This document shows positions 4,149 to 37,331 of a stretch of 64,000 nt of DNA, piece after piece. The stretch covers positions 62,001 through 126,000 of the forward strand of contig JAYWIR010000098.1 of the NCBI GenBank assembly GCA_036172245.1, in the 5' to 3' direction. The translations under genes were made by a program, and so were the position numbers. Source of the DNA: Raillietiella orientalis. Lineage: Eukaryota. Within the stretch, counting starts at the first letter, position 1. Each line of letters starts with the position of its first letter. A model generated the notes under the pieces. That model had not been told where the DNA came from. It searched no databases and worked only from the letters and a program-made list of their open reading frames with translations.

Positions 4149-5811
4149 TTTTCACCGGGATTTCGCCGGGGCGTTTCTTCTAAAATAAACATTTATAAGA
4201 ACGTGCAGTAACTGGACCACTGCTCCAGCCACGCACAAAGAAACACAGAGACTGCCGGGTCATTGGTTTGCAGAGTTGTACGGTCCACCACGGCAGCAGG
4301 GGGAAAGAGGAAAAACAAAATACAAAACAAAAAAAAAAAAGAAAAGTTGGGAGGGTAAGGGAAGGGATAACAGTTGCTGGTGGGGCCGTTGCATCCTTTG
4401 CAGGATGCCGGCAAGCTCCTTCTGTATTCCTGGATCCAGGTGGGGCCATCAACACCCTCCTCAGGAACTGGGAGGCTGGCTGGCTGGCACCCTGGTCGTG
4501 TGTTCCTCGTATAGCCTTGCTCCAGGCGGCGACGATCCCGCGAAGGCAGAACGGGGCTACTAACGAGGCCGCTGGCCGGAAGGCGTCGGCAACGAAGAGG
4601 GCTTTCACAACGTCCCTGGGGTTGCCGCAGGGGATTCCGATGGCGGCGGCAAAGCGGAACCAAAGGGGCCGAAGGGCAACACAATCCACAAGCAGGTGGG
4701 GGAGGGACTCCCGTTCCCCACGCCTGACGCAATTGGGGTCCAACGCTCCCTTGGTCCAGTGGTGTCAGCGGGCGCTGCAGATGAGTCTAAAGTGCTGCAA
4801 CAGGAGAGCCGTCTCCTGCCATTTTAAGAAGAGGGTGGAGGTGTTTATCAGTACCGGGGCCACTTCAAACGTTAAATGGGAACGTCGAGCAGCGCGCCCC
4901 AGCGAAGAAGTCCATGAGGAGGCGTACTCGGGGTGGCAGCGTCAGTTAGCTGATCCGTCTTTCACTCACCTATCTTCTTCAACTTCCCGAAGATTGTAAC
5001 TGCAACTTCCCACTTCGCCGCAACATCGCTGTCCAGATCTTCCATGAAAGAGGGCAGAGCAGCAGCGAGGGGGTTTCTCCCGTCCAGCACTCTCTTCTTT
5101 GGATCCTCCAGGATCTCGCGGAGCTTGCAACTTCTGTAACCCCCAAACAGGAACCTTCGTTCCTGTTGGGAGCGTTGCATGCCGAACTCTCCCCACGTTC
5201 GAACGGTTTCCTGCAGCCAAGCACTACCATTCAAAGGGCGACAGGTGACCAATCCTGAATTTTTTCGGTACAGCGCAGCCACTCTCCGTAGCTAGATTCC
5301 GCATCGGTTGACGCGATGACGGAGTTCAAGAAACGACGTCAGTCCCGTCTTACCGGTGGCTTGCTGGAGAGGGAGACGTGCAGGGACGCACTGACAGGTG
5401 CACCAGAACTCTGGAACAACTGCCGAAATTGGGAACTGCAGCTGAAGCTCCAGCCGTTTAGCGTCAGGAGGCCCAGACCACCGTCCCGACGAGGAGCGCA
5501 CAAGTACTTTGAGCAGACTCGGGCCCTCCCGTTGCCCCAAAGGGCGATACGGAGGAGGTCCTTAGACCGCTTTTTAATCCACTCTGGGGGAGGCAAACAA
5601 AAAGCAGGGGGCGGAGGAGAGGAGCCGCGAACGTGTTCGAAACCGCGGCTTGCCCAGGCAGGATTAACCTGCCGCCTCGGTACGGGCCGATCGCCGTCTC
5701 TTCTTTTTGGAGGCAGCAGGACCATGCTTCCGCAATGGTGTAGTCCCCCAACGGCACACCAAGGTACTTTAAGTCCCTCACCGTGGGGATCTTCAGACGG
5801 ACCCAGTCCTG

Positions 5812-9600: not shown

Positions 9601-9703
9601 AGGCATCGCTGCTTGATCGACCACCGAACCACATGACGCTTGCACTGGGAGAGACTTCCTGGCACGAGGAGCACCAAGAAAACACGTCCACCCTTGAGCA
9701 CGC

Positions 9704-11799
9704 AAGGCGTTCGACTGCGTAGACCAGGATCTCCTGCTGGAGCTTCTGGGTTTCTTGGGCTTCTCACCTTCCCTTCTCTTCTACCTGCGCACATGCTGAC
9801 GCTGAGCGCTGATTAATGTACATTACATTGGAATCACAGCGTACGGCGTGCCGTTGCGGCGGGGCATACGTCAGGGCGACAGCCTTAGTCCCCTGCTTTT
9901 TAGCACCTTCTTGGAGTTGGTGCTGAGAGAGTACAGGGTGACTTTGGCTCGCTCGCCCAGTTCGTGCTTCGGCATGCCCGCTGTTGCACCATACGCCTAC
10001 GATCTTCTGCTGATGTTGCTCATGTCCATCCCGGCAGCCGCAGTCGAGGATTACTTGGATCTGCTAAGCCACGGGACTGGACTGCGTGTTAACAAGGCGA
10101 AGTCGTCGATGGTAGCGGTTGGTGCGACCTTGGTCGGACGGCCTAACTGGATCCGCTTGGGGATCCCCACGGCCAGGTGCCTGAAGTACCTGGATGTCCC
10201 GTTGGAGGAATTTTGCTTTGCAGAAGCCTGGTCAGGTCGTCTCCAAAAGGTAGCGCTGGCGATCGTCCCGTTCCTGGAAGGCAAGTTCCTTCTGCCGGAA
10301 CGGGCCGCGGTTTGAAACGCATTCGCGGCCCCCATTCTACGCTACTACATTTTGTTTTCATAATCCCTATTCTGTCGAAAAAACGGACGAAGGACCTTCT
10401 ATGTATTGCCATTTGGGGCAGCGGAAGGTCCCGAGTGAACTTGAAAGACATAAGCGCTCCTCGTCGGCACGGCGGTCTCGGCCTCCTGAGGCTGGAGCGC
10501 TTGGAGTTCCAGCTACGATGGCGCACTTTGGTCATCGCAGCGAAGCTGTGGAATACCTCTTGGTGGGTTACGGCCCGTTTTCTTGTCAGCCTTGTTTTCG
10601 GGACGCAGGGACAATCTTCTGTGCCGCGGCCGGAAGGTTAGAAGATGCGGCCTCCTCCTCGGAAGCATGGAAGCCCAGGTGAGAGAGAACGGTTGGATAG
10701 TATGCAGCCCTGCCAACTCCTCCTCTTGGTTGGAGGAAACCCTTGGAACGTCAGCAAAGTTGAACAACACTTGAGAGGTAATCTGCAGCCGCCTGCGATT
10801 CGGCAGTAACGCCTGCTGCACTCTGCGGTCCACTTTGCTGTGTCCCATCAGAAGCAAGTAGGCGGAGACCAGGCCTTTAGCTACGGAGCTGCCCTCTCTG
10901 TGTAGGGCTATTACCAGCGGCCGTACGCCGAAGTGGCATGTCTCCTGCCGGATCTCAGGACGAGAGAAGATGTTAAACGGTTGGACCAAGGGTGTACTGG
11001 CGGATGCCACGTCCCCGAGTGCCCTTTCGCGAGGACTTGCAAGATGGAACGAGCTGCTTGGCATCCCGTCAGATGAATTGAAGTTGCCCCGGGTTTTAAT
11101 TGGAGCCAGGATTCTCCCCCAGAAGTGGCAAGATTCGGCGCTGCTGACGTTGCATTGGGGCCTGAACTGCAATGCGCGCTGCTTCCACTAGACCCGAGAG
11201 AGAGTGAATCCTCAGTGTGCCCGGTGTGGGGAGAAGGAGTCGCTCTCCCACCTTGTTGTTGAATGTGCTGCCCTCCGACCCTTGTGGGAACGGTTTGGGA
11301 CGACCCTAAGACTCCCTACGGGCAGCGCGCCCAGAGACTTTTTCCGCCTCCTATTCGTGCGGGACGCCCGGCAGCCAGCCGCAGCCGTGGCAGGATTATG
11401 CTGCATTCGCGGCATCGTTGCGGCGTGAAGTGATACACGCGACGAAGAAGTGGACCAGAACGGGAGGGACGTCATCCCGTATGCTGTTCGCTTCCTGACG
11501 AGAGCTTCTGGATGGCCCTAACTGGATACAATTCGGATGGACTTAAAGGGATTCCTTCAAAGGAAATGTTCTCCTCTCAGTGCACAGTGATCCATTTTTA
11601 GCCCTCCAGCTTCTGTTTGTTCTCCTTACTTTTTTTTTTTTTTGTTTTCTCCCCATACTTTCCACTGCCAAGGAGAGCCACGTCGGGCTGCGTCCCGGCA
11701 TCCCGGCAGGTCCTCTGTTGTATGGCCGTTAGTAAGGCCTCGTACCACGTTTGTAGAATGTTTTTTTAATAAACGCCCAGAAAATACCCGGGTGGAAAA
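9704..11799 (+). mobile_element. Family-A LINE, right part of the host copy (RT, C-terminus, 3' UTR)
   Basis: Starts at the right TSD. Contains RRGIRQGDSLSPLLF and CARCGEKESLSHLVVEC, and ends aataaacgcccagaaaatacccgggtggaaaa. Confidence 0.9.
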
Positions 11800-12425
11800 C
11801 ACAACGAAGGTGTTGGGCTTTCGCCACATCGCGAAAACGCTGGCGAATTTTCAATTTCAGCGCGGATGGCGTTCTCATCAATCCGCACTGTTGTCCCGGT
11901 AAGGTGAACCACAATGGAGTGGTCCACAGTGTGGGGGAGTGAATTCCTGCCCTCAAATTGTGCGGGCGTGCAGAGCATTTTGTATGTAAGAGCTGCATCC
12001 TTGCGGATGAGCTCCGCCAACTGCCCTCCACTCCGTATCGAGAGGCAAAGAATTTCATGGTCGCAATGCCGATCTTTTTGATGGCATTGCCGAACTTTCG
12101 CGCCCTTAACGGGGAATATAGATTTCCCACCTTGTACAGGAGGGCTGAATTGTAGCCTTCCTGGATGTAGGATTGTATTTCGGCGGCGACATCGGGCGTT
12201 CTCGTCGCTCCCACCACGCTTCAGGCCCACGCCGTAGTGGCTAGGGAAGATTGAGAAGTGGTGGTGTGGCGTGATCTCATTTCCTTCGGCTTGGGAGACG
12301 CGGTCTTTTTGCCTCTCTCACCTGGAACTGCGGCGTACACAGGCATTTCTGCCTGTCAACGGCTGCAAAACACACACGAAACATCAAAAAAGAAAAACTC
12401 CCTATGCACAGAGCGCACAAAATTT
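11800..12425 (-). mobile_element. 5' UTR and N-terminal ORF1 fragment of a family-A LINE
   Basis: 'IQEGYNSALLYKVGNLYS' is homologous to the ORF1 N-terminus at 9050-9547. Confidence 0.8.
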
Positions 12426-12435
12426 GCGTCCGGCG

Positions 12436-15423
12436 TTTGTAACCCGGATATGCCGGGGCATTTATTATTCTAAATTTTTACAAAAACTAGATAATAAAGT
12501 CTTTAAAAAGATGTTTTCTGTGGGGAAACACTGTGTCCTCCCACCTTGCTTGACGTGTTCGTTGCCGGTGCATAGACCGGTTAGGTCCATTCCTCAGGCG
12601 CATGGGAAGGGAAAACTAGAACAAAAACAAACAAAAAGACACATAACAAGGAGGGAAACAGTTATATGGGAAGAGAAGGGGGGCATAGCAGAATTACTGG
12701 ACGCCTAAGTCGGTCTTTCGCATCCTGTTGAGGATGCAGTCAAGCTCGGTTTTTATGGTGAAAGGTAGACGCCACCTTGTCGCCGTCTCTAAAGAGATCG
12801 TCGTCCAGTGGATGGCGTCCCTGCATCTTAGGGCTCCTCTTCTGGCGTGCTACCTTTGCACAATGCCGCGCACGCAGCAAAAGAAATGCTAGAGACGCAG
12901 CGGGGCGCAGGCCGTCACGCAGAAAGAGGCGACGGTAAATTTCCTTATGGTCGCCTACTGGAAGATAGAGGATTGGGGCGATTCGACTCCAGAGTCCATC
13001 CAGGGCGACACACTCGAGGGTGAGATGCGGGAAGGTTTCTCTTTCTCCGCACTCGACAAAGCGGGCATCCACATTCCCCAGTGTCCAGTGAGACAGGCGT
13101 GCTCTGCTTAACAGTCCCCAGTGCAGAAATAGCAACGCCGTCTCCTGCCAATTCAAAGAAAGTGTTCCGCAATTTAAACACGCTGGGGGCCACTTCACCT
13201 CCTCCGGAGGTATTGCGAACAGCTCTCCCCAGCGCGCAAGTCCGTGAAACGGGAAGCTCGGGCTGGCAGCGTCCGTGATCTCCCGAGTCGTCCACGCCTT
13301 TAAAGGTTTATTCCTGCCTCGGATGAGGCAGGACACTTCCCACGATGCCCGCTCGTTGCTGCTCCTAGTGTTTTTTAGGGAGGACAGAACAAGGGCAAGG
13401 GGGCTGAAAGAAGCCCACAGAAACTTCCGGGCGTGTTGATAATCTCCTGCAGCGGCTGTCGAGCGTACGGTCCTCGTCGTAGGCAGTTGTATTCCGCCTC
13501 GCTCGTGCCGCTGATCTTAGCCCACGCGGAAGCTGACTCCTGAAGCCAGGCAGTGCAGTTCGCGGGGAGGCAGGAGATGCAGGTATTCTCCCTCATCAGG
13601 GCGACCATTTGGCGCAAATCGGAGCCACAGTTGGAGAGGCTGTGCTGGTAGGCCACGGAGAGCGAGGGCAATCCCTCGCAGCCGGTCGCTCTTCTGGCGT
13701 GGAGACGAGTCGGTACGCATCATGGCGTCATCCATTAGTTAGCCGCTAGGACTAGCTTCCGTATTGTTGTTTGTAGTTGGATGCGCTCCAACGTAAGGTG
13801 GCCCAAGCCATCATCCCTGCATGGAGCGCACAAGTCTTTCAATCGGACTCGCAACCTCGCTTTGCCCTAAAGGGCAGTCCTCAAGAGGGCTTTGGTCCGT
13901 CTCTGTATGTAAGAGGGGCGAAGAAAACAAAAAGTGAGGGGCGAAGGAGGGGGGCCGCGAACGCGTTCCACACCGCGGCCCGCTCCTGCAAGTAAAACTT
14001 GCCGTTCCGGAACGGGCCGATCGCCAACTCCACCTATTGGAGACGGTCGGACCAGGCCTTTGCAACGCAGAAGTCTCCCGATGGAACGCCTAGGTACTTG
14101 AAGCACCTGCCCGTGGGAATCCCCAAGCGGAGTCAGTCAGACCGTCTGGCACACGCCGTATTGCTTAAAAGTAGTGGTGATGTAGGAACGATGGAAGATT
14201 TCTCTCTGTTCACCTCTAGGCCCGTCCCGCGGCGCAGCAACTCAAAGAAATCTTCGAATGACGACGCCGGGGTGGACCCGGGGAGCAGGAGCAGAAGGTG
14301 GTCGGCGTCAGTCGACACGGCAGGCGTACCGTGACACGAGCTTACAGGGTTGCCCGAGTCTCCCCGTATGCCCTCAGCAACAGCTCGAAGTAGATGCTGA
14401 AGAGCAAGGGGCTCAGACTGTCACCCTGCCTTATGCAACGCCGAACCGGCACGCCGTACACGTGCCGGCCGCTAAAAGAGATGTTTATCAGAGCGAAGTG
14501 CCAGCAGGAGCGCAGCTTAGCCCGGAAGACGGCCGGGAATTTCAAGCGTTCCAGGAGCTCCAGAAGGAGTTCCTGGTCGGCGCAATCGAACGCTTTACGC
14601 AGAACGACTGCGACCGCAAGGGCACCGGGCGCGGCTCTTCCATAAAGGGCGTCCCCTCCCTGGTCACAGGAGAATCCAGGATTCTCTTGACCTACCTGGT
14701 GTTCGCTTTGTTGCAAGTGCCACTATGTACTGGCGAGGAACAGGTTGGCCTCCATGCTTCGTCCGGGAACAGCATATGACTGCTCCGGACTTACCACGGA
14801 TTCCGCCACCCGTCCCTGTCGCTCAGCCCAAAGCTTGGAAAGCATCTTGGCATCCGCATTCACTGCTGTGATAAGACGCCAGTTGCCTACGTAGCGATTG
14901 TCTCCTTCTTTCGTCAGGAGACGTACTCTAGCTTACCGGAACGATTTGGGGACGTCCCCTTGTTCTCGGATCAGCATGCAAAGTCGATGCACCAGGAGGG
15001 CCAGCTCCGCCACGAAGCCTTTGTAGAACTCCGCATGCAGACCGTCTTCTCCAGGTGCTTTCCTCTTTCTGAGCTTTCCGATGGCGGAGACGATCTTTGC
15101 CATCGAGAAAGGCTCCTCGAGTTAATGTGTCTGCTCCTCCTGCAGCGCGGGGGCGCCTTGCGGCAGCGAGCGCTGCGCCACGGCGCGCTCCGTTGTTCTA
15201 CGCGCGTACAAGTGGACGTAATAGTCCCGCAAGGTGCAATTTATTTTCGCAGGAGGTGAGCATTCCTGGCCTAGGGCGTCCAGAAAGCTGGCCGACCCGG
15301 ATTGACAGGTCTGTCGCTCAGCCCAGTTTTATACTCCGCCAGGCATCGAACGTCGAGAGTCCAAGACTAAAGACGTGCGTCGTAGTATGCCCGGTCGTTC
15401 CTCAGCCCTTCGCCGAAACCTGG
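12436..15423 (-). mobile_element. Family-A LINE, 3' part of a host copy (linker, RT, C-terminus, 3' UTR); continues at 22677
   Basis: RKAFD, RQGDSLSPLLF and ECGERETFPHLTLEC, with a terminal hairpin at ~12440-12460. Breaks at 'PGFGEG'. Confidence 0.88.
15410..15423. repeat. 14-bp TSD copy 1 (tcgccgaaacctgg)
   Basis: Identical at 16991-17004; one mismatch at 22677-22690 (tcgccgaatcctgg). Confidence 0.88.
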
Positions 15424-16990
15424 TCGAGACGGCGATCGGCCCGTTCCTGGAAGGCAAGTTTCACTCGCCGGAACGGGCCGCGGTTTGGAACGCCTTCGCG
15501 GCCCCCATACTCCGCCCCTTGCTTTTTGTTTGCCCCGCCCCCGTGGAATCGAAAAAGCGGACGAAGGACCTCCTCCGCATAGCTCTTTGGGGCAAGGGGA
15601 GGCCCCGAGTCCCTTTGAAGGACTTGTGCGCTCCGCGTCGGGACGGCGGTCTCAGCATCCTGACGCTGGAGCGCGTGGAAATCCAGCTGCGATGGCGGAC
15701 CCTCGCCATCGCAGCGAAGATGTGGAGCACCGCTTGGTGCATTCCGGCCCGTCTCCTGGCCATGCGTGTGTCCCGCTGCGAAGGACACGCATCGTTTCTT
15801 CTGTGCCCTGGCCGGAAGATTCGAAGATGCGGTCTACTGCTCGGCCGCATGGCAACCCTGGCAAAGGAGAACGACTGGATGGTTTGTGGCTCTGCCAACT
15901 CCTTTGCTTGGCTGGAAGAGACTGCTGGCACCTGGGCCAAGCTGAACCAGAGGTGCGAAGACCAGATGAACTGCCTGCGAGTCGGCTTTTACGCCCGCCG
16001 AACTCTCCGTGAAATACTTGAATTTCCACCGAGTTGCACGTGGGCGGAAGGCACACCCCTTGTTACGGCGATGCCCTTCCTCCAAAGGGCGCTTCACGAA
16101 AGCCGGAAGCCAAGGTGGCAAGTCTGCTGCCGTATCGCAGGCAGAGAGAAGACGATGAGCGGCTGGACCATGGGAGAGTTGACAGATGCAACGACCCCTA
16201 GTATCCAGCCGCGTGGATTAAGAAGATGGGGCGAGCTGCTCGGCATTCGATTGGATGACCTGAAGTGGCCCCCGGTTCTACTTGGATCCAGGATTCTTCC
16301 CCTGAAGTGGCAAGAATCGGCGCTTCTGTGGCTGCATTGGGGTCTACCCTGCAACGCGCGCCGCTTCCACTGGACGCGGGGAAGAGTAAATCCTGCGTGT
16401 GCCAGGTGTGGGGAGCGGGAGTCGCTCCCCCACCTCTTAGTTGAATGCCCTGCCGTCCGGATTCTTTGGGAACGTCTTCAAACGGCACTTGGGATACCGG
16501 ATGCTGGCAATGGTGGATGTATCTTCAGTCTTGTCTTCGTGCGGGACGCCCTCAGTCCAGCTGCAGCCCTGGCAGCACTTTGCTGCATTCGTGGTATAGT
16601 GGCGGCCTGGAGTGATGCCGAAGATGAAGACTGCATCGTGAGGGATGTCATCGAGTATGCTTCTCGCTTCCTGCAGAGAGCTACCCGATGGACCCATCTA
16701 GGAAGGATGAAAAAGGAACTAGAAGGCATCCTGCAAAGGATGGGCCCTCCCAACAGTTTTCTGTGATCCCTTCCCGGCCCTCCAAACTTTTTTTTGTTTT
16801 TTGTTTTTCTCTTTTATTTTATTTTTGTTTTCTCCCCCATCCCCCTCCACTGCTGAGGAGAGCCACACCGAGCTGCGTCCCGGTGTCCCGGCAGTTCCGG
16901 TATTGCGTGGCCGTCAGTGGGGCCTTGTACCACGTTCTGTATTGACCGTTGAAATGTTTTTAATAAACGTCCCGGCGTATCCGGGTGGCA
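15424..16990 (+). mobile_element. 5'-truncated family-A LINE (ORF2 C-terminal region still open to 16766, plus 3' UTR)
   Basis: ORF 15375-16766 contains CARCGERESLPHLLVEC. Closely similar to 21102-22676 and flanked by TSD copies 1 and 2. Confidence 0.92.
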
Positions 16991-17004
16991 TCGCCGAAAC
17001 CTGG

Positions 17005-20000
17005 TGTGAATGGACGTGTTTTTTGGGCGCTCCGCCAGCGCTTGTCTGGGAAGCAACCGGAGTTTTAACTGTAGTTAGGTGTCAAGTGTGGGTCGTCGGT
17101 GTCCGATGGCAGTTGTGCCAGAGGACACCGCGATGGATGTAGTTGAGGGGGAGGCAAGTCCTTCCACAAGATTTACAGCTATGGGGGCAATAGTCCCTGG
17201 AACGTGTTCGCAGCCGGTGAAGACTTGGAGTGAAATGGTCGCCGCCCCCAGTGCGGAGGCCATGGCCGAGGAAGCCGCCTATCGAGCCTCTGAATACAAG
17301 CCGTCGCTTGTATTCAAGGTAGGCCCTTTGTTTGCAGGAAACACGGCGCGCTCTTTCAGCAGAGCCCTTCAAAATGTTAATGTCCGTAAGGTAGATCTGG
17401 AAGGTCTGTGCGTGCTCAGCGGGGCGCAGCGGGTTCAGCTGGTGTGCAAGAGCATCAGCCTAGCCGATCGCCTTATAGATACCCCGCTGATCAAGGACGG
17501 CCGTAAGATCTTCCCCGTCTCAATGGACCACTCGGTTGTGGTCCACTTGACAGGTATATCCAACCGCATGACGCGCACTGCCGTCAAAGACGGATTAAGC
17601 AAGTACGGGGACGTACACGCGCTGTGGCCGGAGCCCACAATCTTTGAGGGCTACGGACGCCACTTCGAGGGCCTCGCCGCGGCACGTGTAACCCCAAAAG
17701 ACGAAGAGAAGCTACCTTACAAACTTGAGGTCGCGGGAGAACCGGTAGACCTCTGGTATGCGGGCAAGCTACGGTATTGCGGCTACTGCGATGCGGTCGG
17801 ACACATCCGAAAGAGGTGCCCAAACATCGTATGCCACTTGTGCGGGGAGAAGGGACACGTCCGTCGCGTGTGCTTTAAACGCCTTACCCAGATTCCCTCG
17901 GCCGCCAAAAAGGCGCAAGGGAGACGCGCTGGGAAAAAAAAATTGGAGAACCGTGAAACTGGCCGAGAAAAGCTGCAAATAACCTAAGCTTCAAGCGCGG
18001 CATCGGAGAAAAATCTTCCCGGAACCGCAGAGGGAGAAAAGGGCTGGCAGCTAGTCAAAGCCAGGAAAGAGAAAAAGGACAAGCATGTCCCGAAGGAAGG
18101 AGAGAAGGCGGCGGTCGGAGCAGAAGCTAAATTCGTGTCGCGCGTAAACACTCTCCGAGAATGCATGGTAACGCCGGAGCGCACTGACTTTCCCGCCGAC
18201 ACCACCGGAGGCGATGCAGCTTCGATCGATTTTCCCGCCGCGACGAATGCGCGCGTAAACCCACTACCTGCTTGCGAAGAGGGTCAGCCGGACGACAAAG
18301 TCGCCGAAACCGAGGACGCAGCCTTCGAGAAGGCCGCGGAGGAGCTGGCGGCAACGCTTGCCGAACGTTAGAACCCTTCGCGAAAGGGGATGCGTAGGCC
18401 GAAAGCGGCTAAAATGGCCCTTGCAGGTGAGTCGGACCGGGAAACAGGAAGTGCATTTTCCTCTGCGGAAGCACCATCAAGAAAAGCGGGGCGAAAATCC
18501 CAGAAACCCCGAAGGTGCATTCCGCCTCCGCGCGAGGGGGATCCAATGGAGGAGTTACCAGTGGATGAAAGCGTGGGAGACCAAGTCGGGCATCACCAAC
18601 GTGGGGCAACCGACGAGAAGGCGACTCAAATGGAGGAAGGTAACCAGGGGTCAGCAATGCCCTCTGAAACCGGCGAACCTGAACCACCGGCACCGATGGA
18701 AGTGGGCCAACAGGTACGAACAACACCACCTTCGCACGGGCAGCCGGAGACGTCGGCACGTAAGAAGGATGGGGAGTTGGTGGGCAAGACGCCAGCCCCG
18801 TCCAGCGACTCGCCCCAAAAGGTGGCAGGAGCACCACCGCCAGGTTCCCAGGAATAACACCTGGACTCGCCTGTCGCCGTCGGATCCGCGCAGCCAGCTG
18901 GAATGTTAACGGGCTGCGCGACGATGGAAACAGACGAGATACAGCCGCCACCTTGCGACATTTCGACCTGGTTCTTTTGCAGGAGATCCACGTGATCACC
19001 GCAAAAGACGCACAGAAGATCGAAACGATCGCGGGAGGGCGGTTGTACTGGCGATGCGGCGCCCGCAACACTTCTGGGGTCGCGTTATTCCTAAAGTCAG
19101 CCATTAACGCGGCCTTGAAGAGCGTGCGCTTTGGGGACGACGGACGGATCGGCCAACTGATTCTCAGAGGGTCCGATGCGATCGACCTCATCGTCACCAA
19201 TGTGTACGCTCCTAGAGGTAAATAGGGATACCAGCAGGGCAACGCGTTACTGGAAACCTAGAAGCGCGAATGGCTGGTGGACGCAGACGTGCGAAAGTTG
19301 CATCTGATAGCAGGGGATTTCAACGTCCGTCTGCTCTCAGATCAGCCCGGAGCACAGGGGAACGCGATCAACGAGTTGTGCGTCGCCATGCGCGCGCGCA
19401 ACTTGTTGACAGAAATAAGCGGGATGGTCAACAGCGTGGACCACCTCTTCCTCGACGAAGACCTGTGCAGACGGGTCGGAAAACGAGGAAAACTTGGATC
19501 GACGCTTTCTGACCATTCCCGGTTATTATTCGAGATGCGCCCGCGCGACAAGGGATCGCCATCCAGGGATTGGCGTATGCCAGGGGACTGGACGGGCCTG
19601 TCAGGTGCGAAAGAACATCTTCGCGAATTCCAGCGAGGCGTCACCCTCCAGTGTCTCGCGGATTGGGAACTATTTAAGGACTCGGTCCGGGAGTTCTGCG
19701 AACAGTTCCCTGTGCAACGTCTGCTCCGGTGATTCCGCGATGGAGCTTGCAAAGAACGCGCGTATTTGCACGCGCGTCGTCACAAAAGTAACCCCAATGT
19801 CCGTCGCCTGGCCGAATACCGCGCCGGAGCCGAACCATAAGGCTGGCAGTCCGGGTCAGCCAGCATGCTGGATGACCTGGGCCGGGGAACGTTCGTCCCC
19901 ATCTGCGGTACGGAATCTCGTGCGGGGTTTTTATTCCTCCCTTTACGCGAAAACTCCACCCGAACAAAACGCCTCGCGACGATTGCTCATGAGTGGTTCC

Positions 20001-22676
20001 GTGGCGCTAGGGGAGGAGGAGGAAGAAATGCTCGATGAGTCTTTCACGACCGGTGAAATTCTCGGCGGTCTCAAAAGGCTCAAGAGGCGTAAGGCGCCGG
20101 GGGAGGACGGCTTGCCCGCGGAGTTCTTTTAGAGTTTCGCGGAAGAGCTGGACCACCTGGTATTCGAGTTTACAAGGCGAATCCGAGACGAAGGCGATGT
20201 TCCCGCCTCGTTTCGGTCAGCCAGGGTGAGCCTCCTCCCGAATTGAGGAGACCTCAGGAAACTTTGCAACTGGCGTCCGATCACGATTCTGAACACGGAC
20301 GCCAAGTTGATTGGCGGGCTGTGGGCGTCGCGATTAGGGCAGGTGTCCAATTCCATAATTAGCCCGGAGCAGACATACGGTGTTCCCGGGCGAAGTATGA
20401 ACGACAACCCTTTCTTCGCGAGCACATGGATACAGGCGAAGCGGAGTAAGAAAGAAGGGAAAAGGAAAATTTTGAACCCTTCTTTGGGGCCGCCAGTAGG
20501 ACAGGGTAGGGACGCTCGTGCGGTAAAGGGGGCCTTAGCGTTCGCAGTCGACCTCCATAAGGCATTCGACTGTGTTGACCAGGAACTCCTCTTGGAGCTT
20601 TTGGGTCGCATGGGCTTCCCACCCTCTTTGATGACCTACGTGCGCTCTTGCTGACGGAACGCGATAATCTCGATTACTTTTAGTGGACAAAAGGTGTATG
20701 GCGTGCTGGTTTGGCTAAGCATAAGGCAGAGCGACAGCCTCAGCCCCTGAATTTTAGCACCTACGCTGAGTTGGTGCTGAGAGCGTACAGGGTGACTTTG
20801 GCCCCCTTGCCGAGCTCGTGCCCCGGCACGCCAGCCGCAGTGGCGTATGCCGACGATCTTCTGCTCCTCTTACCTATGTACCCTGGCGAAGGAGGTCGGA
20901 GATTTCTTCGACCTGCTTAGCCGTGAGGCCGGATAACAGGTTAACAGGGCGAAGTCGTCAGTGTTGCCAGTTGGAGCGACGTGGGCAGGGTAGCAGGACT
21001 GGGTCCGTCTGGGGATCCCCACGGTGAGCTGCATCAAGTAGCTCGGGGTGCCGACGGGGGAATTCTCCCCTACCGAAGCGTGGTCCAGCTGCCTCCAAAA
21101 AGTCAAGACGGCGATGGGCCCGTTCCTGGAATGTAAGTTTCACTTGCTGGAACGGGCCGCGGTTGGGATCGCCTTCGCGGCCTCCATCCTCCGCACCGTG
21201 CTTCTTGTTTGCCCCGCCCCAGTGGAATCTAAAAAGCGGACGAAGGACCTCCTCCGCATAACTCCTTGGGGCAAGGGGAGGCCCCGAGTCCCTTTGAAGG
21301 ACTTGTGCGCTCCGCGTCGGGACGGCGGTCTCAGCATCCTGACGCTAGAGCGCGTGGAAATCCAGCTGCGATGGCGGACCCTCGCCATCGCAGCGAAGAT
21401 GTGGAGCACCGCTTGGTGCATTCCGGCCCGCCTCCCGGCCAGGCGTGTTTCTTGCTGCAAAGGACTCGCATCGATTCTTCTGTGCTCAGGCCGGAAGATT
21501 CGAAGATGCGGTCTACTGCTCGGCCGCATGGCAACCCTGGCAAATGAGAACGACTGGAGGGTTTGTGGCCCTGCCAACTCCTCCGCTTGGCTGGAAGAGA
21601 CTGCTGGCACCTGGGCCAAGCAGAACCAGAGTTGCGGAGACCCGATGAACTGTTTGCGAGTCGGCTTTTACTCTCGCCGAACTCTTCGTGAAATACTTGA
21701 ATTTCCACCGCGTTGCACGTGAGCGGAAGGCACACTTCTTGTTTCGGTGATGCCCTTCCTCCAAAGGGCGCTTCACGAAACCAGGAAGCCAAGGTGGCAA
21801 GTCTGCTGCCCTATCGCAGGCAGAGAGAAGATGATGGGCGGCTGGACCATGGGAGAGTTGATAGATGCAACGACCCCTAGTCTCCAGCTGCGTGGATTAA
21901 GAAGATGGGGCGAGCTGCTCGGCATTTGATTGAATGACCTGAAGTGGCCCCCGGTTCTACTTGGATCCAGGATTCTTCCCCTCAAGTGGCAAGAATCGGC
22001 GCTTCTGTGGATGCATTGGGGTCTACCCTGCAACGCGCGCCGCTCCCACTGGACGCGAGAAAGAGTAAATCCAGCGTGTGCCAGGTGTGGGGAGCGGGAG
22101 TCGCTCCCCCACCTCTTAGTTGAATGCCCTGCCGTGCGGATTCTTTGGGATCGTCTCAGAACGGCCCTTGGGATACCGGATGGTGGCAACCCCAGAGACG
22201 TGTACAGTCTTGTCTTCGTGCGGGGCGCCCTCAGTCCAGCCGCAGCCCTGGCAGCACTTTGCATCATTCGTGGTATAGGCGCGGACTGGACTGATGCCGA
22301 AGATGAAGACTGCATCGTGGGGGATGTCATCGAGTATGCTTCTCGCTTCCTGCAGAGAGCTATCCGATGGCCCCATGTAGGAAAACTGAAAAGGGAACTA
22401 GAAGGCATCCTGCAAAGTATGGGCCCTCCCAGCAGTTTTCTGTGATCCCTTCCCGGCCTTCCAAACTTTTTTTTTTTTTTTGTGGTTTGTTTTTCTCTTT
22501 TATTTTATTTTTGTTTTCTCCCCCATACCCCTTCATTGCCGAGGAGAGCCACACCGAGCTGCGTCCCGGTGTCCCGGCAGTTCCGGTATTGCGTGGCCGT
22601 CAGTGGGGCTTTGTACCACGTTCTCTATTGACTGTTGAAATGTTTTTAATAAACGTCCCGGCGTATCCGGTTGGCA
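17005..22676 (+). mobile_element. Full-length (~5.67 kb) family-A LINE with decayed ORFs, flanked by TSD copies 2 and 3
   Basis: 5' UTR tggacgtgtttt, ORF1 17106-18857, ORF2 ~18854-22445 (SWNVNG, GDFN, SDH, KAFD, YADD, CARC..H..C) and a 3' terminal hairpin. Confidence 0.93.
17106..18857 (+). pseudogene. LINE ORF1 with two CCHC zinc knuckles (internal stops)
   Basis: CGYCDAVGHIRKRC and CHLCGEKGHVRRVC. Confidence 0.88.
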
Positions 22677-24059
22677 TCGCCGAATCCTGGAGGGAGACGG
22701 TTTTTGGGAAACTGGTCGCAGAGCTCGCGGACTGAGCTCTTCAAGTCGTCTTAGTCCGCGAGCGACTGCAGATGGAAGACTTGCAGGAACGAGCGAAGAT
22801 GTTGCGCTGCTCCTGCGAGGCGCAACCAGTCCCCTGGCAAACGCCACGCTGTGGAGGGTGGACCTCTACCGCGCGGGTGTATTTCTATCACGAGCCGGGG
22901 ATGGTCGGAAAGTTCGGATGGCACTGCCCCTCGATTTCCCACCTGCAAACACAGGTGGTTGTCGAGGAACATGTGGTCGATCCTCGTCTCCGTCCCGGCG
23001 TCACCGGCCAACGAGTTGCGCGCGTGCTTGGCAGCGCACATCTCGTTTACCAGCTGTGTGCGAATGTCGGGCGCACCTGCCAGCAGGCGGATGTTAAAGT
23101 CCCCGGCAATGAAGTGCGCCTTTCGCATCTCTGCTTCGGCCAGCCAATCTCGCCGCTGGCTTTTGAAGAACGCAGTGCGTTCCTTGCGCCTGTGGCTCGT
23201 GTCGGGCGCTTACACGTTGGTCACGACGAGGTCGATCGCGTCGGACCACTTGGCAACAAGCTGCGCGATTTGATTTTCCTCGTCGAAGTGCACGTCGCGC
23301 AGCGCTTTAACGACGGCTGGCTTCAGCATGAAAGCCACACCGCGGGTGCGTTCGCTCCCGTTCTCGTATAGGAGCCGCCCGCCTGCGATCCGTTCGAATT
23401 CCTGGGCCTCCTCTGCGTGGAGCACGTGCGTCTCCTGCAGAAGCGCCAGGTCGAAGTCCCGCAGGCTAACGGCCACTTCTCTGCTCTTGCCCTCGTCGCG
23501 CAACCCGTTGACGTTCCAACAGATTACGCGCAGTCGCCGGCAGGAGGAGAGTCCACGCGTTGGTGTGTTTATGGTGTTTGCTTACCGTACTTCGCCTGCT
23601 GTTCAGCAGGCGGGAGTTGTGTATCCATTGCGACGGGCTGTTCCTCGCAAGGAAGCGGTCCGTCGGTGGTTGTGGTGGTGGTTGGAGGATCCTGCTTGGT
23701 TAGGGTTGCCTCCGGCGAGGAGTCGCGAGACCTCGCGGACATCGCCTCCCCGTCGTCGTGGTCCGACCGCATTTCCTCCTCCGCCGGTGGAGGTGCGGAG
23801 CGCCGCGGGTTGCTTACCTTGCGGCCCGCTTTGCTCTTCGGGAGAGCGACAGCCGGAGCGTTGCCGGCTTTGGCTTCGGACTCGGAAGTCTCCGGTCCTT
23901 TCGCCTCAGCCGGACGCCTCAAGGCCTTTTTCTCGGCCTTGGGAGGTTGCTGTAGCATGGCTGCCAACTCTTCCGCCGCCTTTTTGTAATCCCGGTCGTC
24001 GCTGCTCACGCTGGACCCGCGACTTTGTCGCGGCGTCGTCGTTCGCGCGGCGGCATGTT
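22677..24059 (-). mobile_element. 5' part of the host LINE (ORF1 C-terminus, endonuclease, linker) whose 3' part is at 12436-15423
   Basis: CWNVNG, LQETH, GDFN and SDH. The linker '..DQFPKNRLPPGFG' joins 'EGLRNDRAY' across the TSD. Confidence 0.87.
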
Positions 24060-27000
24060 GTTCACACCCGGATGTGCCGGGGCATTTATTTCTTAGAAAT
24101 AAAATAACAGAAAAAATCTCGCGTGGCGAACCCGAAGGTTCACCACTCCAAAACAGCTTGCTGGTCAACGGCTCCGTGCCGGAGAGGTCCTTCCGATGCG
24201 CGGCGATGGGAAATAAACAAAAACAAAAAGAAACAAAAAGTTCAAATGTAGGGGGGAACAAATGTTGTAGGGGTGGGAGGGCGGGGAAGGGATCACGGTG
24301 CGCGTGGAGAGGTCCTCTAGATCCTATTCAGGATCCGCACAACCTGAGTCCTTTCAGCGCCTAAGTGGCGCCACTTGCAGACACTTCGCGCGAAAACGCG
24401 AGTCCAGTGTAAGGCGTTGCCGGTTGGCTGACGCCTTCTTCTGGTGGCGTTCCAAGCCGCCACTATTCCTCTGATGCAGCAGAGGACTGCTAAACTAGCG
24501 GGCGGGGACAAGGCGTCACTACAGAAGAGGCGCCTGAAAACGTCCTTTGGGCCGCATCCGCGCAAGTCCAGGATCGCCGCGAGACGATCCCATAAAGGGC
24601 GGATGGCACTGCACTCGATGAGAAGGTGGGGGAAGGTCTGTTTTTCCCCGCACCGGTCACAATAAGGATCCACAGCCCCCCGGGTTGTGTGATGAAGGCG
24701 TGCTTTGAATGGAAGTCCCCAGAGGACCACAAGCAACGCCACATCCTGCCATTTCAGGGGGAGGGATGTACTGTTCCAGGACGCTGGGGGCTACTTCATC
24801 TCCTCCGGAGATAGTCCGAGTAGCTCGCCCCAGCGTCGAATTCCGTTGAGCGGGACACTCGGCGTCGCAGCGTCAGCTAGCTGCCGACATATCCACGCCT
24901 TTATCGATTGTGTCCTGCCGCCTATAGTGCAGGACACGGTCCATTTCACCTGCTTGCTACTGTCCCTGGCATTCACAAGGAAGGGCAGCACTGGGGCAAG
25001 GGGGGTTATCAAAGCCCACAGAAGCTTGTCGTGGGACTGCACGATCTCCTGCAGCGTCCAGCGGGCGTGCCTTTTCATACAAGTGTTCCTTGTGCCCGCC
25101 GGAACGTGGATCTTTTCCCAGGTGGAGACTGACTCGTGCAACCAGGCGGAGTAGTTCCCTGGGAGGCAGGAGATCCAGGCGTTCTCCCGAACCGCAACAA
25201 AGATGCTTCGCAGCATACAGCCACAGTATGGTCTTCTGCAGACGCGCGCAGACAGAAACGACAAAAGTCCGCTGATTCCGCAGGCTCGTTGGGCCAGGAG
25301 GCGTGCTGGAACGCACCAAGGCGTGTCCCACAATTCTGCCGCAAGGGCGAGAGTCCTGAATCGAAGTTGTATTTCGATGCGCTCCAGCGTAAGTAAGCCC
25401 AGTTCACCGTCCTTACGTGGAGCGCACAAGTCTTTGAGCCTCACACGGGACCTCCCTTTGCCCCAAAGGACTGTCCTCAGGAGGCATGCTGCTCGTTTCC
25501 GAATAAAATAAGGGGCGTGACAAACAAAAAGTAGGGAGCGAAGGAGCTGAGCCGCAAACGCGTTCCACACCGCGGCCCGTTCCTGCAAGTAGAACTTGCC
25601 TTCTAGGAACGGACCGATCGCCAACGCTGCCTTTTGGAGACGGTCGGACCAGGCTTCTGCTGCGCAGAGGTCCCCCAAAGGGTATGCCAAGGTACTTGAA
25701 GCACCTGCCCGTGGGGATCCCCAAGCGGATCCAGTCCGACCGTCCAGCCCACGCCGAACCGACGAAGACCATGGACGACTTCGCCATGTTCACCTCCAGG
25801 CCCGTCGCGCGGCGCAGCAACTCGAAGAAGTCCTCGAGTGCACTCGCCGGGGTGGACCCGGGAAGCAGCAGCAGAAGATCGTATGCATAGGCCGACACGG
25901 CAGGCGTGCCGGCACTCGAGCTCGGCAGGGTTGCCAGAGTTACCCTGTATGCCCTCAGCACCAACTCGAAGTAGATGCTGAAGAGCAAGGGGCTCAAGCT
26001 GTCACCCTGCCGGATGCCGCGGCGTACGGGCACGCCGTACACGTGCCTGCCGCTGAAACCGATATTGATTGACGCGTTGCGCCAGCAGGAGCGCAGGTAA
26101 GATTGAAGCACGGCAGGGAAACCCATGCGTTCCAGGAGCTCCAGAAGGAGATCCTGGTCGACGCAGTCGAATGCTTTGTGCAAATCGACCGCGACGTCAA
26201 AGGCTCCCGCCGAGTCCATCCCACCCTCTGCTTGATCTTCTTGGTCAGAGGGGGACGCGAGGCTCCCTTGACCGTCATGTGCAACGCGTTGTCGCAACTA
26301 CCACCATGAGCTGGCGAGGAGCAGGTTGGCCTCCATGGTTCGTCGGGGAACAGCATAGGTCTGCTTGGTACTCACCACGAAAGCGGCCACCCGCCCCAAA
26401 CGCTCAGCCCACAACTTGGCATACAACTTTGCGTCCGCATTCACTACTGTGATGGGACGCCAGTTGCCAATGTTGCGTAAGTCTCTTGACTTCGGCAGGA
26501 GACGTACTTTAGCTGAACGGAACGAGGCGGGAACTTCGCCGTGTTCGCGGATCAGCGCATTTAACCTGAGCACCAGGTGGGCCAGCTCTGGCGCGAAGCG
26601 ATGGTAAAACTCCGCGGGCAGGCCGTCCTCCCCTGGTGCCTTCCTTCTCTTGAGCCTGTTGATGGCGGAGATGATCTCCGCCATCGTGAACGGTTCCGCC
26701 AATCTGGAACGCTCCTCCTCCTTGAGCGCGGGAGCGCCATCCGGCAGCAGGCGCTGCGCGAAATGGCGCTCAGGTGATAGTGACGCGTACAAGGAGGAAT
26801 AAAACTCCCGCACGATGCGGCTTACCTGGGCTGGGCTGGAGCGTTCTTCGCCCTGATGATCCAGCAGGCAGGCCGAGCCTGACTGCCAGGCCTGCCTCTC
26901 CGCCTCAGCCTTGAATTCAGCCAGGCGACGGACGTCGGGACGCCGGGAATAACGGCGCGCCTGGAGGTACGCCCGCTCGTTCCTGACACCCTCACCGAAG

Positions 27001-27821
27001 CCCGGCGGAAGACGTTCCAGGGGAAACTGGTCGCAAAACTTACGGACTGAGCACTTCATTTCGTCCCAGTCCGCGAGCGTCTGAAGCTGGAATCCTCGCA
27101 AAAAACAGCGTAGATGTTCCGCCGCTCCTGCGAGGCGCAACCAATCCCCTGGCAGGCGCCATGTTTTCAGGGGAGGGCCCTTATTGCGCGGATGTAACTC
27201 GAGCACGAGCCGTGGATGGTCGGACAGCTCTGCCGGGAGCGTTCCTCGAGTTCCCACCCGCGTGCACAGGTGGTTGTCGAGGAACATGTGGTCGATGTTC
27301 CGATCTCTCCCGGCATCGCCGGCCAACAAGTCGCGCGCATGCATGGCTGCGCACAACTCGTTGACCAGCTGTGCTCGTCCGCTGGGCGCACCTGCCAGCA
27401 GGCGGAGATTGAAATCGCCCGCAATGAGGTGCGCCCTTCGCACGCCTGCTTCGGCCAGCCAGTATCGCCGCAAGGTTTCGAAGAACGCAGTGCGTTCCTC
27501 GGCCCTGTGGCTGCTCACCGGAGCGTACAGGTTCGTGACTACGAGGTCCATCGAGTCGGACCACTTGAACACAAGCTGCCCAACTCGACCATCCCCGTCG
27601 AACCGTGCACTGCGCAGTGAGTTGTCGACGGTTGGCTTTAGCAGAAAGGCCACTCCGCATGAGTTGTCCGTTCCGTTCCTCCACAGTAGCCGCCCTCCCG
27701 CGATTCTTTCGATTTCCTGGACATCTCCCGGTCGGAGAACGTGCGTCTCTTGCAGGAGCACCAGGTTGAAGTCTCGCAGTATGGCGGCTACATCTCGCCT
27801 CTTTCCGCCGTCGCGCAACCC
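24060..27821 (-). mobile_element. Family-A LINE from the endonuclease start to the 3' end (no ORF1)
   Basis: Endonuclease and RT motifs in 26298-27821, RQGDSLSPLLF, CDRCGEKQTFPHLLIEC, and a terminal hairpin at 24061-24090. Confidence 0.9.
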
Positions 27822-33960: not shown

Positions 33961-35092
33961 GATAACCGTGCATTCCTCAATCTTCTCGCTTGCCTGCTGT
34001 TTTTTCTGGCGGTACGCGAGGTTTTTCTTCAATCTTCTCTCCTTTTGGCTCTTTTTGTCCGTTCTTACCTGCCACCCAGGCTTCTGGCCGGATCCTTCGA
34101 CTTTTTTGGCGTTGTTTGCCGGGGTCTCGGGTGCGTTCTGGGCCTTGGGAGCGGGTGGCACAGCGTTCGCGGCAGCTTTCGCCGCCAGCCTTTTCTGCAG
34201 CAGCCCGCCGCGTTTTTTCAGGTTTCTTTTGGAAGCCAGCTGCACTGCTTCTTTTGGGCACACCTCCCTCTTGTGACTCATTGTGCCGCATACTTGGCAC
34301 TTCACGTTGCGGCACCTTATTTTCAGGTGGCCCGACGTATTGCAGAAGCCGCAGTATTTCGGCTTCCCCACATGCCATAGGTCCACGGTTTCGCTATCGA
34401 CCACCATTTTGTAAGGATGAGTGCAGCCCTTTCGTACGGTCACGTGTGCAGCCGTGAGGCCGTTCTGAAGCCTTGTGTAGTCCTCATAAGGACTAACTTC
34501 CGTCCACTGCGCGTGGACCGTACCGTATTGCTCCGACGCGCCGCGAACCTGTTCCTACCGCATCCGCGCTGTCACGCCTAATAGGTGGACCACCATGCTG
34601 CGGTCCGCCGTAATAGGGAGGAGCCTGCGCGTCCCCATCACCACGGGGGTTTTAAGCAGTCGTTGGGCCAGCTCTGCTTGTTTGCAAATGAGCTCAACGT
34701 ACTGACCCGCACTGCGGATGGTCATAGCGCTGAGCTCCTCCTCTTTCACATCGAGAGCGCGCATCCCTTTCGAGAAGGCGCGCGCGCTCTCTAAAGAATA
34801 TAGATTGCCTACCTTGTAGAAAAGCGAAGGGTTATACCCCTCTTCTACATAGGCCAACAATTAAGCCGCAACTGCAAACGATGGCGCTGACACGACGGCG
34901 CTCCATGCCCGCGCTGCAGCGGGAACCGATTCTGTGGGGGCGCATGCCCCCACCTCCATCGTCTCTGAAGGCGACGTTGCTGCCGCCCCCTAACTCTTCA
35001 TCGCCACTGGGGGCGGCGTTGCCGCTGCCCCTTGACCATTCCTGGTGGTCGCGTCAGGCATCGCTGCTTGATCGACTACGGAACCATACGAC
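33961..35092 (-). mobile_element. ORF1 fragment closely related to ~8510-9640
   Basis: YVEEGYNPSLFYKVGNLYSLESARAFSK and CGFCNTSGHLKIRC. Confidence 0.88.
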
Positions 35093-36806
35093 GTGGTGCC
35101 AGTTGGTGCGGCGTGGGCAGTGCAGCAGGACTGGGTCCGTTTGATGATCCCCACGGCGAGGTACCTTAGGTACCTTGGTGTGCTGTTTGGGGACTATTCC
35201 CCTTTGGATGCGTGGTCAGGCTGCCTCCAAAAAGTTGAGACGGCGATCAGCCCGTTCCAGGAAGACAAGTTTCTCCTTCCGGAATGGGCCGCGGTGTGGA
35301 ACGCGTTCGCAGCTCCCATCCTCCGCCTCCTGCTTTTTGTTTGTCACGTCTCCCAGGTGCTGAAGAAACGGACGAAGGACCTCCTAAGAATTGCCCTTTG
35401 GGGAAGAGGGAGGCCTCGATTCCTGTTGAAAAACTTGAGTGCTCCGCGTGGAGATGGCGATTTCGGCCTCTTAAAAGTGCTGCGAGTAGAGACTCAGCTG
35501 GGATGGCGCACCCTCGCTATCGCAGCGAAGTTATGGAGCACCCCAAGGTGCGTTCCGGCCCGACTGCTTTCCAGCCGTTTATCCGGGACGGAGAGTCTCG
35601 CGTCTCATCTTCTGTGCCGTGGCTCGAAGTTCAAGAGTTGCAGACTTCTCCTGGGACGCTGGCAACTCTGGCTAAGGAGAACAACTGGATAGTATGCAGC
35701 CCCGTCAACTTTTCCGCATGGCTTAAGGAGACGGCTGGCACTTGGGCTTAGATAAACCAGAGGAGTGAAGGTCCCATGAATTGTCTGCGTGTCGGCCCAT
35801 ACGTCCGCCGCACCCTGCGGGAAATACTTTTATTTTCCGCAAGTTGCTACTGAGCGGATACGATCCCCGTTGCTACGGCGATGCCCTACCTCCGAAGGGC
35901 GCTTCCCGGCAGCCAAAAGCCGAGGTGTCAAGTCTCCTGCCGAATCGCAGACAGGGAGATGTTAAGCGGCCGGACCTTAGGAGAACTGGCGGACGCCACG
36001 ACACCGAGCGTGCAGCCGAGAGGACTTTTGCGATGAGGCGAGCTGCTCGCCATCCCCATGGATGTGCTAAAGTGGCCCCCAGTGTTGTTGGTATCGAGGA
36101 TCCTGCCCCTTAAGTGGCAAGAATCGGCGCTGCTACTGTTGCATTGGGGTTTACGCTGCAACGCACGCCGCTTTTACTGAACAAGGGGAGCGCTGGATCC
36201 TCAGTGTGCCAGGTGCGGAGAGCGGGAATCGCTCTCCCACCTACTTGTTGACTGTGTTGCCCTTTGACCCCACTGGGAACGGTTTGGGACGACCCTTGGC
36301 CTCCCGGTGTGGAGCCAACCCAAAGACGTTCTCCGCCATCTCTTCGTGAGGGACGCCCTTTAGCCATTTGCATCCGTGGCAGCACTCTGCTGTATCCGAT
36401 GCATCGTGGCTGCCTGGAGAGATACCTGCGGCAAAGGAGTGGATTCAACCGCGATGGCTGTCATCCTGTATGCTGTTTGCTTCCTGCGGAGAGCTATTGG
36501 ATGGCCCCAGCTGGGAAACTTCAAGAAGGACCTCGAGGGTATCCTGATAAGGATGGACCCTCCTCCCAGTGGACTGTGATCCCTTCTTTTCCCCAAAAAA
36601 ACTCTATTTTTTTTGTTTTTGTTCACTGTTTCATTTTTCTTCTTGTTTTATCCCTCATCCCCCTCCACTGCCGAGGAGAGTCACACCGGGCTGCGTCCAG
36701 GTGTTTCGGCAGGACCGGTATTGCGTGGCCGTTAGTGTACCTTTTTCCACGTTCTGTACTGACAGATGAAGCGTTTTAATAAACGTCCCGGCGTACTTGG
36801 GTGACA
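35093..36806 (+). mobile_element. 3' part of a family-A LINE, same subfamily as 15424 and 17005
   Basis: Contains CARCGERESLSHLLVDC. The 3' UTR and end (aataaacgtcccggcgtacttgggtgaca) match 16962-16990. Confidence 0.88.
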
Positions 36807-37331
36807 TCACCAAATCCTTTCGGGAGACGATCCATGGGGAACTGCTGGCAGAACTATCGGACCGAGACTTTCAAATCGTCCCAGTTGTCGAGCGTCTGCA
36901 GGCTGAAACCTCGCAAGAGGCGCATCTTCGTTTTCGGAGGATTCCCCTTCCTCGGAGGAGACGATCCTCCTCTGGTTACGGATTTTCCATGCGGTCTTCC
37001 ATGGGGTTGCAGACACGGATGGTGCGTGTCCGGCCTCCGGGTCCGAGTCCGAGGTTCCGGTCCCCCTCCTTTGGGCCGGACGTCGAGCGGCCTTCTTCTC
37101 GCCCTTTGCGGGTGATTGCGGAACGGCGGCGGTGAGCTCCACGGCGGCTTTCGCAGAGTCCGCGCCAACGCGGCTTTCCCCCTCGCTGCAGCCCTCGGCT
37201 GCTGTTCGCACAGCGACGGGGCTGTCGGCGTTGTTGCACACGGCAACCGCCTGTTCGCACGTGACTTCGGCGTCTGTAAGGCGCTCCAGTGAGATCGTGC
37301 GTTTTTTCAGTCCATGCTTTTTCGCGGGTTT
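36807..37331 (-). mobile_element. Host LINE remnant: ORF1 C-terminus joined to the ORF2 linker (endonuclease deleted)
   Basis: The linker 'LRGFSLQTLDNWDDLKVSVR' (36854-36915) follows ORF1-like low-complexity sequence. ORF1 continues from 39991. Confidence 0.75.

Follow-up and report, generated by a model that had tools for sequence, protein, structure and literature searches.

We analyzed a 64,000-nucleotide (nt) stretch of the Raillietiella orientalis contig JAYWIR010000098.1 (positions 62,001 to 126,000 of the forward strand, hereafter the window), in which positions 1 to ~42,300 form a nest of L1-like long interspersed nuclear elements (LINEs). The nest has a GC content of 54-61%, compared to 38-46% in the adjoining DNA, and holds ~41 kb of LINE inserted in LINE, with nested junctions that carry duplications. 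Grouping the copies by identity over their last 1.5 kb separated an alpha family consisting of T, F, M and B/D (69-93% identical among themselves) from a beta family consisting of H, I and O (62-68%), with a further copy, N, placed nearest H and I by its linker, the segment between the endonuclease and reverse transcriptase (RT) domains. Element C (with L) and element K were separate from both families. The subject of this work is the position at which three of the alpha copies, T, F and M, interrupt the linker of beta LINEs.

A sequence-only reading of this DNA had proposed that a triplicated 14-mer brackets a 5'-truncated copy and a long copy of one LINE subfamily, and that removing both copies restores the second open reading frame (ORF2) of a minus-strand host. 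Both proposals held up. When the whole window was searched for the pattern TCGCCGAAWCCTGG, allowing up to 1 mismatch, exactly 3 matches were returned, one to the left of T, one between T and F, and one to the right of F (Table 1). A shuffle control gave 0.08 expected matches and reached 3 matches in 0 of 100 shuffles. T and F are separated by exactly 14 nt, one duplication length. Host H aligns collinearly across the gap, with 23561 to 22675 corresponding to element positions 1852-2738 and 15121 to 13823 corresponding to positions 3027-4309. In-silico excision of T, F and two of the 14-mers gave one minus-strand frame, ...CDQFPKNRLPPGFGEGLRNDRAYYDARL*..., that reproduces the reading quoted earlier, and the continuous host frame reads ...NRLPPGFGEGLRNDRAY... 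The earlier reading had also named the possibility that the 14-mer is part of the element's own terminus. This was rejected, as retaining a single 14-mer restores the host frame and the linker alignment places a homologous uninterrupted stretch, TCACCGAAGCCCGG, in sister copy I; the 14-mer belongs to the host.

Table 1. Features of the alpha insertions, their beta hosts and the target site (window coordinates).
Feature	Position	Strand	Remarks
T, 5'-truncated alpha LINE	15424..16990	+	element positions 4098-5672, by alignment to F
F, full-length alpha LINE, ORF2 frameshifted	17005..22676	+	5' motif GGACGTGTTTT..GCGCTCC
F ORF1	17079..17987	+	302 codons; CCHC zinc-knuckle-like motif at Pfam threshold
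M, third alpha copy	~35086..36806	+	diverged lineage, 73-75% to F/T; left edge +/- 6 nt
B, 5' part of fourth alpha copy (B/D)	2408-4149		
D, 3' part of fourth alpha copy	9704..11797	+	B and D split by element C
Target site duplication, copy 1	15410..15423	.	TCGCCGAAACCTGG; host H sequence; 14-nt exact repeat flanking T
Target site duplication, copy 2	16991..17004	.	TCGCCGAAACCTGG, identical to copy 1; between T 3' end and F 5' end
Target site duplication, copy 3	22677..22690	.	TCGCCGAATCCTGG; right of F
H 3' part	12438..15409	-	beta; RT, C-terminal region and 3' end
H 5' part	22691..24060	-	endonuclease domain and upstream region; 5'-truncated, abuts 3' end of I
N, second beta-like host	36807..37330	-	homologous target TCACCAAATCCTTT at 36807-36820
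Beta copy I, unoccupied homologous site	26992..27005	-	TCACCGAAGCCCGG
Conserved 3' terminus	22648..22676	+	AATAAA, 5-bp CCCGG/CCGGG hairpin, ..GGCA; also 16962-16990 and 36778-36806

T and F are 92.9% identical when compared over the last 1.5 kb, and alignment of the segment 15423-16990 to F positions 4098-5672 gave 92.5%. An open frame of 486 codons (15306-16766) was found in T, with a zf-RVT-like motif that scored under the Pfam cut-off. The longer copy, F, had been described as full-length. It does reach the 5' motif common to other full-length copies (GGACGTG, a T-rich stretch and GCGCTCC), but the open reading frame list shows its ORF2 broken over many frames. The most plausible history of the tandem is that two copies inserted one after the other at a single target, because the truncated 5' end of T exactly abuts a 14-mer and the spacer equals one duplication. 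F is probably the older of the two, with T entering its left duplication later, since T keeps an intact frame and the 14-mers that flank T are identical.

The third alpha copy, M, ends at the same nucleotide in host N, which strengthens the earlier interpretation of the tandem as repeated insertion at one site. M ends ...GGGTGACA and is followed by TCACCAAATCCTTTCGGGAGACG, and F ends ...GGTTGGCA and is followed by TCGCCGAATCCTGGAGGGAGACG of host H. Both junctions fall in the same column of the multiple alignment of host linkers, in the same antisense orientation. The M/N and F/H targets differ at two positions in their first 11 nt, and as both differences are CpG-to-CpA changes, these 11 nt may originally have been the same in both. 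In the window, 3 of the 4 alpha 3' ends (T, F and M) lie at this position, referred to below as the PGFG site for the host residues encoded there, and all 3 insertion events at the site are antisense to the host. The remaining 7 3' ends in the window, namely those of C, H, I, K and O and two at 41816 and 60540, all lack this flank.

N has a complete 5' region with the 5'-end motif, which argues that it is a host and not cargo carried by M. A 3' transduction of host flank by M was rejected on the same grounds, as N continues into this 5' region and the motif stands at the boundary with the neighboring element. Past the insertion of O, which has its own 14-nt duplication (AAACCCGCGAAAAA), N resumes as P (40005 to ~41100). 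Around O/P (40053-40245), element positions ~878 and ~3012 are only 190 nt apart, which is explained by the O insertion together with truncation. Relative to H, N is without ~960 nt of the endonuclease region (36930-37150 vs 22790-23800). Linker identity is 75.8% between H and I and 65.0% between H and N, with N no closer to H than to I; the N segments used for these comparisons began at 36796 and included 11 nt of the M terminus, so identities involving N are slightly off and the junction is unaffected. The proposal that the subfamily parasitizes and inactivates its hosts read too much into the sequence, since both hosts are already defective copies; H has further stops, some of them close by, and is therefore a degenerate, dead copy.

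Synonymous (dS) and nonsynonymous (dN) divergence were compared over 431 codons in the reading frame of T, with bootstrap 95% intervals. F versus M gave a dS of 0.82, a dN of 0.26 and a dN/dS of 0.317 (0.247-0.408), and T versus M gave a dN/dS of 0.294 at a dS of 0.74. The T versus F comparison was near neutral, with a dN/dS of 0.782 (0.535-1.224). These values support the view that the M and T/F lineages diverged mostly while they were active elements under purifying selection, and because the F-M ratio is well below neutral, a neutral segmental duplicate is ruled out for M/N. The sequences thus support T, F and M as three independent insertions on one site. Assuming random landing in LINE DNA (~5.7 kb of positions in two orientations) with two alpha ends available, we estimate the chance of the M junction matching that of F at ~1 in 11,000, and the arrival of both T and F at one physical site would be rarer still. 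Control junctions were scattered, with C in B/D at element positions 3555-3566 (11-nt duplication TCGAACGCCTT), L in M at ~3950, K in L at ~1100, D in ORF1 of element G, and O in P/N.

Pfam searches identified Exo_endo_phos and RVT_1 domains in the longer frames of the nest, along with weak matches to a zinc knuckle in ORF1 and to zf-RVT in the C-terminal region. In the alpha family, copy B (ORF 2041-3159) matched Exo_endo_phos with an E value of 1.5e-8, and the RT region was 52-60% identical in amino acids to ORFs that score for RVT_1. Alpha thus has both the apurinic/apyrimidinic endonuclease-like (APE-like) domain and the RT that define the target-specific APE-type class, with copy F itself frameshifted. 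The constant duplication and the tandem spacer of one duplication length, also typical of this class, were found for T/F; the duplication of M is not visible. Among solved structures in the PDB, the best match was human L1 ORF2p (E 4.1e-39), and R2 proteins scored ~1e-9 or weaker. An ORF2 nearest to L1 ORF2p and the ORF1 plus ORF2 layout place the family in the L1 superfamily, with the zinc-knuckle and zf-RVT-like motifs both weak. The only named relative in a protein search with 2 matches was rabbit L1, at 25%. Another protein search returned 20585 matches at E <=0.001, of which the only close ones were P0001 (68%) and P0019 (60%, 132-aa), and a profile search for clade naming returned 6 matches, none of them informative.

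All 11 LINE 3' ends in the window share AATAAA, a CCCGG-loop-CCGGG hairpin and a short A-ending tail (T..A), with no poly(A) (for example 12438-12466 and 37331-37359). T/F-like copies end ...CCGGGTGGCA, M-like copies end as given above for M, and the alpha terminus follows the pattern AATAAACGTCCCGGCGTA..GGGTGRCA. The 29-nt 3' end that had been quoted for the subfamily was found in the window only at the ends of T and F (1 mismatch). The 5-bp stem of the hairpin is conserved and 0 of 5 pairs covary, so the hairpin is not structurally proven. As all of the diverged families share this terminus without poly(A), the pattern suggests that their RTs recognize a common 3' hairpin.

Taken together, T, F and M probably represent a target-specific APE-type LINE lineage of the L1 superfamily inside the ~41-kb nest, a reading that we prefer while leaving real room for the alternatives discussed below. 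In the proposed mechanism, alpha elements would prefer to integrate at 5'-GGATTCGGCGA^AGGG-3' on the sense strand of beta LINEs (H, N and I), within the endonuclease-RT linker where it codes for PGFGE. Under the standard geometry of target-primed reverse transcription, the first nick would fall after ...GGATTCGGCGA (...GGCGA) on the host sense strand, and the nicked strand would prime reverse transcription from an element RNA ending ...GGCA. Because the host sense strand would prime cDNA synthesis, the insert would always be antisense. A second nick 14 nt away would produce the 14-bp duplication, and since the site would be regenerated on one side, a second element could enter and leave the observed order of copy, duplication and copy. 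We infer that the endonuclease of the element, and not RNA pairing or chromatin, picks the site and that the preference is genome-wide; assigning target choice to the endonuclease follows a general statement in PMC4494074 (this and the other publications are cited from extracts). More tentatively, and stopping just short of calling it probable, we propose that this LINE lineage may have evolved genuine sequence specificity for one nucleotide in the coding region of a competing LINE family, always integrating in antisense and keeping its aim across a dS of ~0.8. Such a lineage would live on and disable copies of another retrotransposon, and rounds of hits would help build Zepp-like nests of the kind that form centromeric DNA in some algae.

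Several observations weigh against so specific a preference. The alpha 3' ends available number 4, all in one window, and one of them, D, is flanked (at 11797) by ORF1 of the minus-strand element G instead of the PGFG site. Although D lies elsewhere, its distance from T is similar to that of M (dS 0.63 vs 0.74), which indicates that specificity is not uniform in the alpha family, or is leaky. The exact 11-mer TCGCCGAAACC inside F (18301-18311) is empty, as is the similar site of beta copy I (26992), which is the most similar empty host site and differs slightly from the occupied ones. The 5' junction and duplication of M are not visible because the 5' end of the minus-strand element L truncates M on the left, and the near-neutral T-F pair, taken alone, is compatible with duplication in place. 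In a nest this dense any insertion is likely to land in a LINE, and the antisense bias seen across families could reflect a common preference for nicking the purine-rich sense strand. Hotspots beyond alpha may also exist, because a second pair of breakpoints nearly coincides at the codons for the RT motif KAFD.

A different explanation, which we consider unlikely, is that all families are steered to one nest in which any endonuclease nicks a few favored spots, in which case the shared site would reflect nothing particular to alpha. The extent of LINE nested in LINE, the predominance of antisense nestings and the KAFD pair, two unrelated breakpoints within ~10 nt of each other, all fit this explanation, and it has precedents in the Zepp clusters of 1.5-42.3 kb, which have a GC content above that of the genome and occur one per chromosome (PMC3446292), and in the location of Zepp/ZeppL clusters at putative green-algal centromeres. 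However, all 3 hits on the PGFG site are alpha copies and none of the 7 other 3' ends has its flank, two C-family insertions lie at different positions, and steering to a region would not by itself make junctions coincide to the nucleotide. Choice of the site by RNA, where the template reads through into the target and anneals at the nick made by a weakly specific endonuclease, appears less probable again. Read-through RNA plays a role in rDNA elements such as R1. The elements in this nest lack poly(A) and stop a few bases beyond AATAAA and the hairpin. Their transcripts could therefore enter the flank, and the same outcome would be expected, with one site reused and tandems separated by a target spacer. 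Against this, the element terminus ..GGCA has no complementarity to the primer end ..GGCGA, and the T-F spacer is exactly the 14 nt predicted by sequential insertion. It is very improbable that a single insertion event gave rise to all three copies, with F/H copied to M/N and the T-F tandem formed by unequal exchange at the 14-mers followed by deletion. The T-F dN/dS of 0.78, with an interval that includes 1, is as expected for an in-place duplicate, and the M-F (73%, 1130/1546) and N-H (67%, 197/296) identities are of similar order. Yet F and M diverged as active elements (upper bound of dN/dS 0.41), H is nearer to the unoccupied I than to N, and N has a deletion and an insertion that are absent from H. 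T also begins exactly at the 14-mer, like a fresh 5'-truncated insertion, and a deletion would need to have ended at that precise base.

LINEs are known that insert specifically into rRNA and snRNA genes, microsatellites, telomeres or a few DNA transposons. Those with an APE belong mainly to the Tx1 and R1 clades, and such specificity is usually interpreted as targeting of dispensable repeats (PMC4640811). Tx1 integrates into Tx1D, a DNA transposon, and SINEU-3 is found in Mariner-N4_AMi for 313 of 347 copies, with tandems 'sandwiching a TSD' (target site duplication) that are read as sequential insertions (PMC4494074). The alpha copies resemble both in their APE-type machinery, their use of one sequence inside another transposon family and a tandem with one duplication between its members, which measures 14 bp here and 16 bp for SINEU-3 (PMC4494074). 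They differ in that the target is the coding region of a related LINE and not a DNA transposon, and the sample for specificity is 3 of 4 junctions compared to 313 of 347 (PMC4494074). R1/R2 and Utopia/Keno likewise return to a single nucleotide position of a multicopy target, sometimes forming tandems (Utopia-1_NVit; PMC4640811), but their targets are host RNA genes (rDNA, U2 snRNA), and R2 and Utopia use a restriction-like endonuclease where the enzyme here is of APE type. Human LINE-1, whose ORF2p is the best solved-structure match to the endonuclease-RT protein of this group and which has the same ORF1/ORF2 layout, differs in its low identity (~25-30%) and in the elements here having a hairpin 3' end and no poly(A) tail; the TTTT/AA sites nicked by L1 are loose, and L1 lacks site specificity (PMC8565326).

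The nest as a whole has the organization of a Zepp-type cluster, a local group of nested L1-type copies with new elements inserted into old. Like Zepp of Coccomyxa and Chlorella and ZeppL of Chlamydomonas, it extends over tens of kb with raised GC, 5'-truncated 3' parts and head-to-tail runs (PMC3446292; PMC8226300), and ZeppL clusters mark Chlamydomonas centromeres (10.1101/2022.06.16.496473, PMC11005252). The likeness is one of organization. The present nest differs in that it is shared by several diverged families and the recurrent site lies in a family other than the invader. No fixed nucleotide target or antisense rule was seen for Zepp/ZeppL in the extracts examined, including that of 10.1101/2025.03.28.645958. 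Cnl1 of Cryptococcus is a LINE that 'inserts preferentially within itself' and forms nested arrays, but its nesting is tandem, in sense orientation and near telomeres, whereas the insertions here are antisense and in the ORF2 linker of another family (PMC9942834). The extracts examined give no defined nucleotide target for Cnl1 either.

A limited full-text literature search found no published report of a LINE with such a target, which does not prove absence. While the class of target-specific LINEs is itself known, the new aspect here is a target-specific LINE whose target is the coding linker of a sister LINE. If the proposed specificity is correct, the hitting of a sister LINE at one site would link target-specific LINEs to self-nesting ones such as Zepp and Cnl1, and would offer a concrete, testable mechanism for the growth of LINE-only nests, including candidate green-algal centromeres. 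It would also add a case of competition between retrotransposon families. The endonuclease would be a compact APE with an apparently long recognition site, judged from the stretch of at least 11 nt that is conserved in both occupied targets.

Across the nest, about nine nestings are antisense: P/N against the copy ending at 41816, M in N, L in M, K in L, J against K, D in G, C in B/D, and F and T in H. Sense orientation is seen for O in P/N and for the run J-I-H-G. Halves absent from the interrupted elements should be found to the left of the window. Element C is a full-length minus-strand copy (~4152-9703) inside B/D, and its 11-nt duplication AAGGCGTTCGA (4139-4149 and 9704-9714) encodes the conserved KAFD motif of the RT. 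The break in element J falls 7 nt downstream of the KAFD codons of J itself (27822-27870), exactly at the start of I, and a 706-codon frame (26298-28418) spans the J-I junction. The 3' end of H (..GGGTTACA) joins the 5'-end motif of G without a target spacer (12420-12470, minus strand), and the 3' end of I joins the truncated 5' end of H, also without a spacer (24040-24100, minus strand). Unlike the T-F tandem, these spacerless head-to-tail joins could have arisen by template switching between RNAs or by repeated entry at element ends. Twin priming was considered for the head-to-head pairs and rejected, since their overlapping parts are not near-identical inverted repeats.

Sequences outside of the window were also searched. 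Contigs from one public DNA run (0.05 of sampled words) were aligned to positions 12000-25000 at 80% likeness, which gave 447 aligned contigs (8 at >=99%, 36 at 95-99%, 121 at 90-95% and 282 at <90%), with listed pieces of ~280-600 nt. Among the 13 joints listed, none links 15409/15423 to 22677/22691, and the run is uninformative on empty sites or on the uniformity of the junction. The 3' terminus motif had 0 matches in a genome contig collection and 0 in a viral contig collection. Its matches at 15 metagenome loci were rejected as chance matches, with 0 of the 15 giving a blastn match to the window. When the T frame was used for a protein-guided scan, 0 relatives were found in genome contigs (35 pattern matches) and 0 loci in viral contigs.

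The AT-richer flank of the nest contains a nested inverted repeat (47590-53600), with arms at 50538-51112/51405-51979 and 48045-48578/52622-53155 that are both 97% complementary, and weaker outer arms. The structure has no Pfam-positive frames and may be a foldback or palindromic element. Further diverged RT frames were found at 272-1837 (RVT_1 E 9.5e-31) and 62884-63873 (5.7e-15), with ~36% amino acid identity to F, indicating that LINE remnants occur at each end of the window, also on the far side of the AT-rich stretch.

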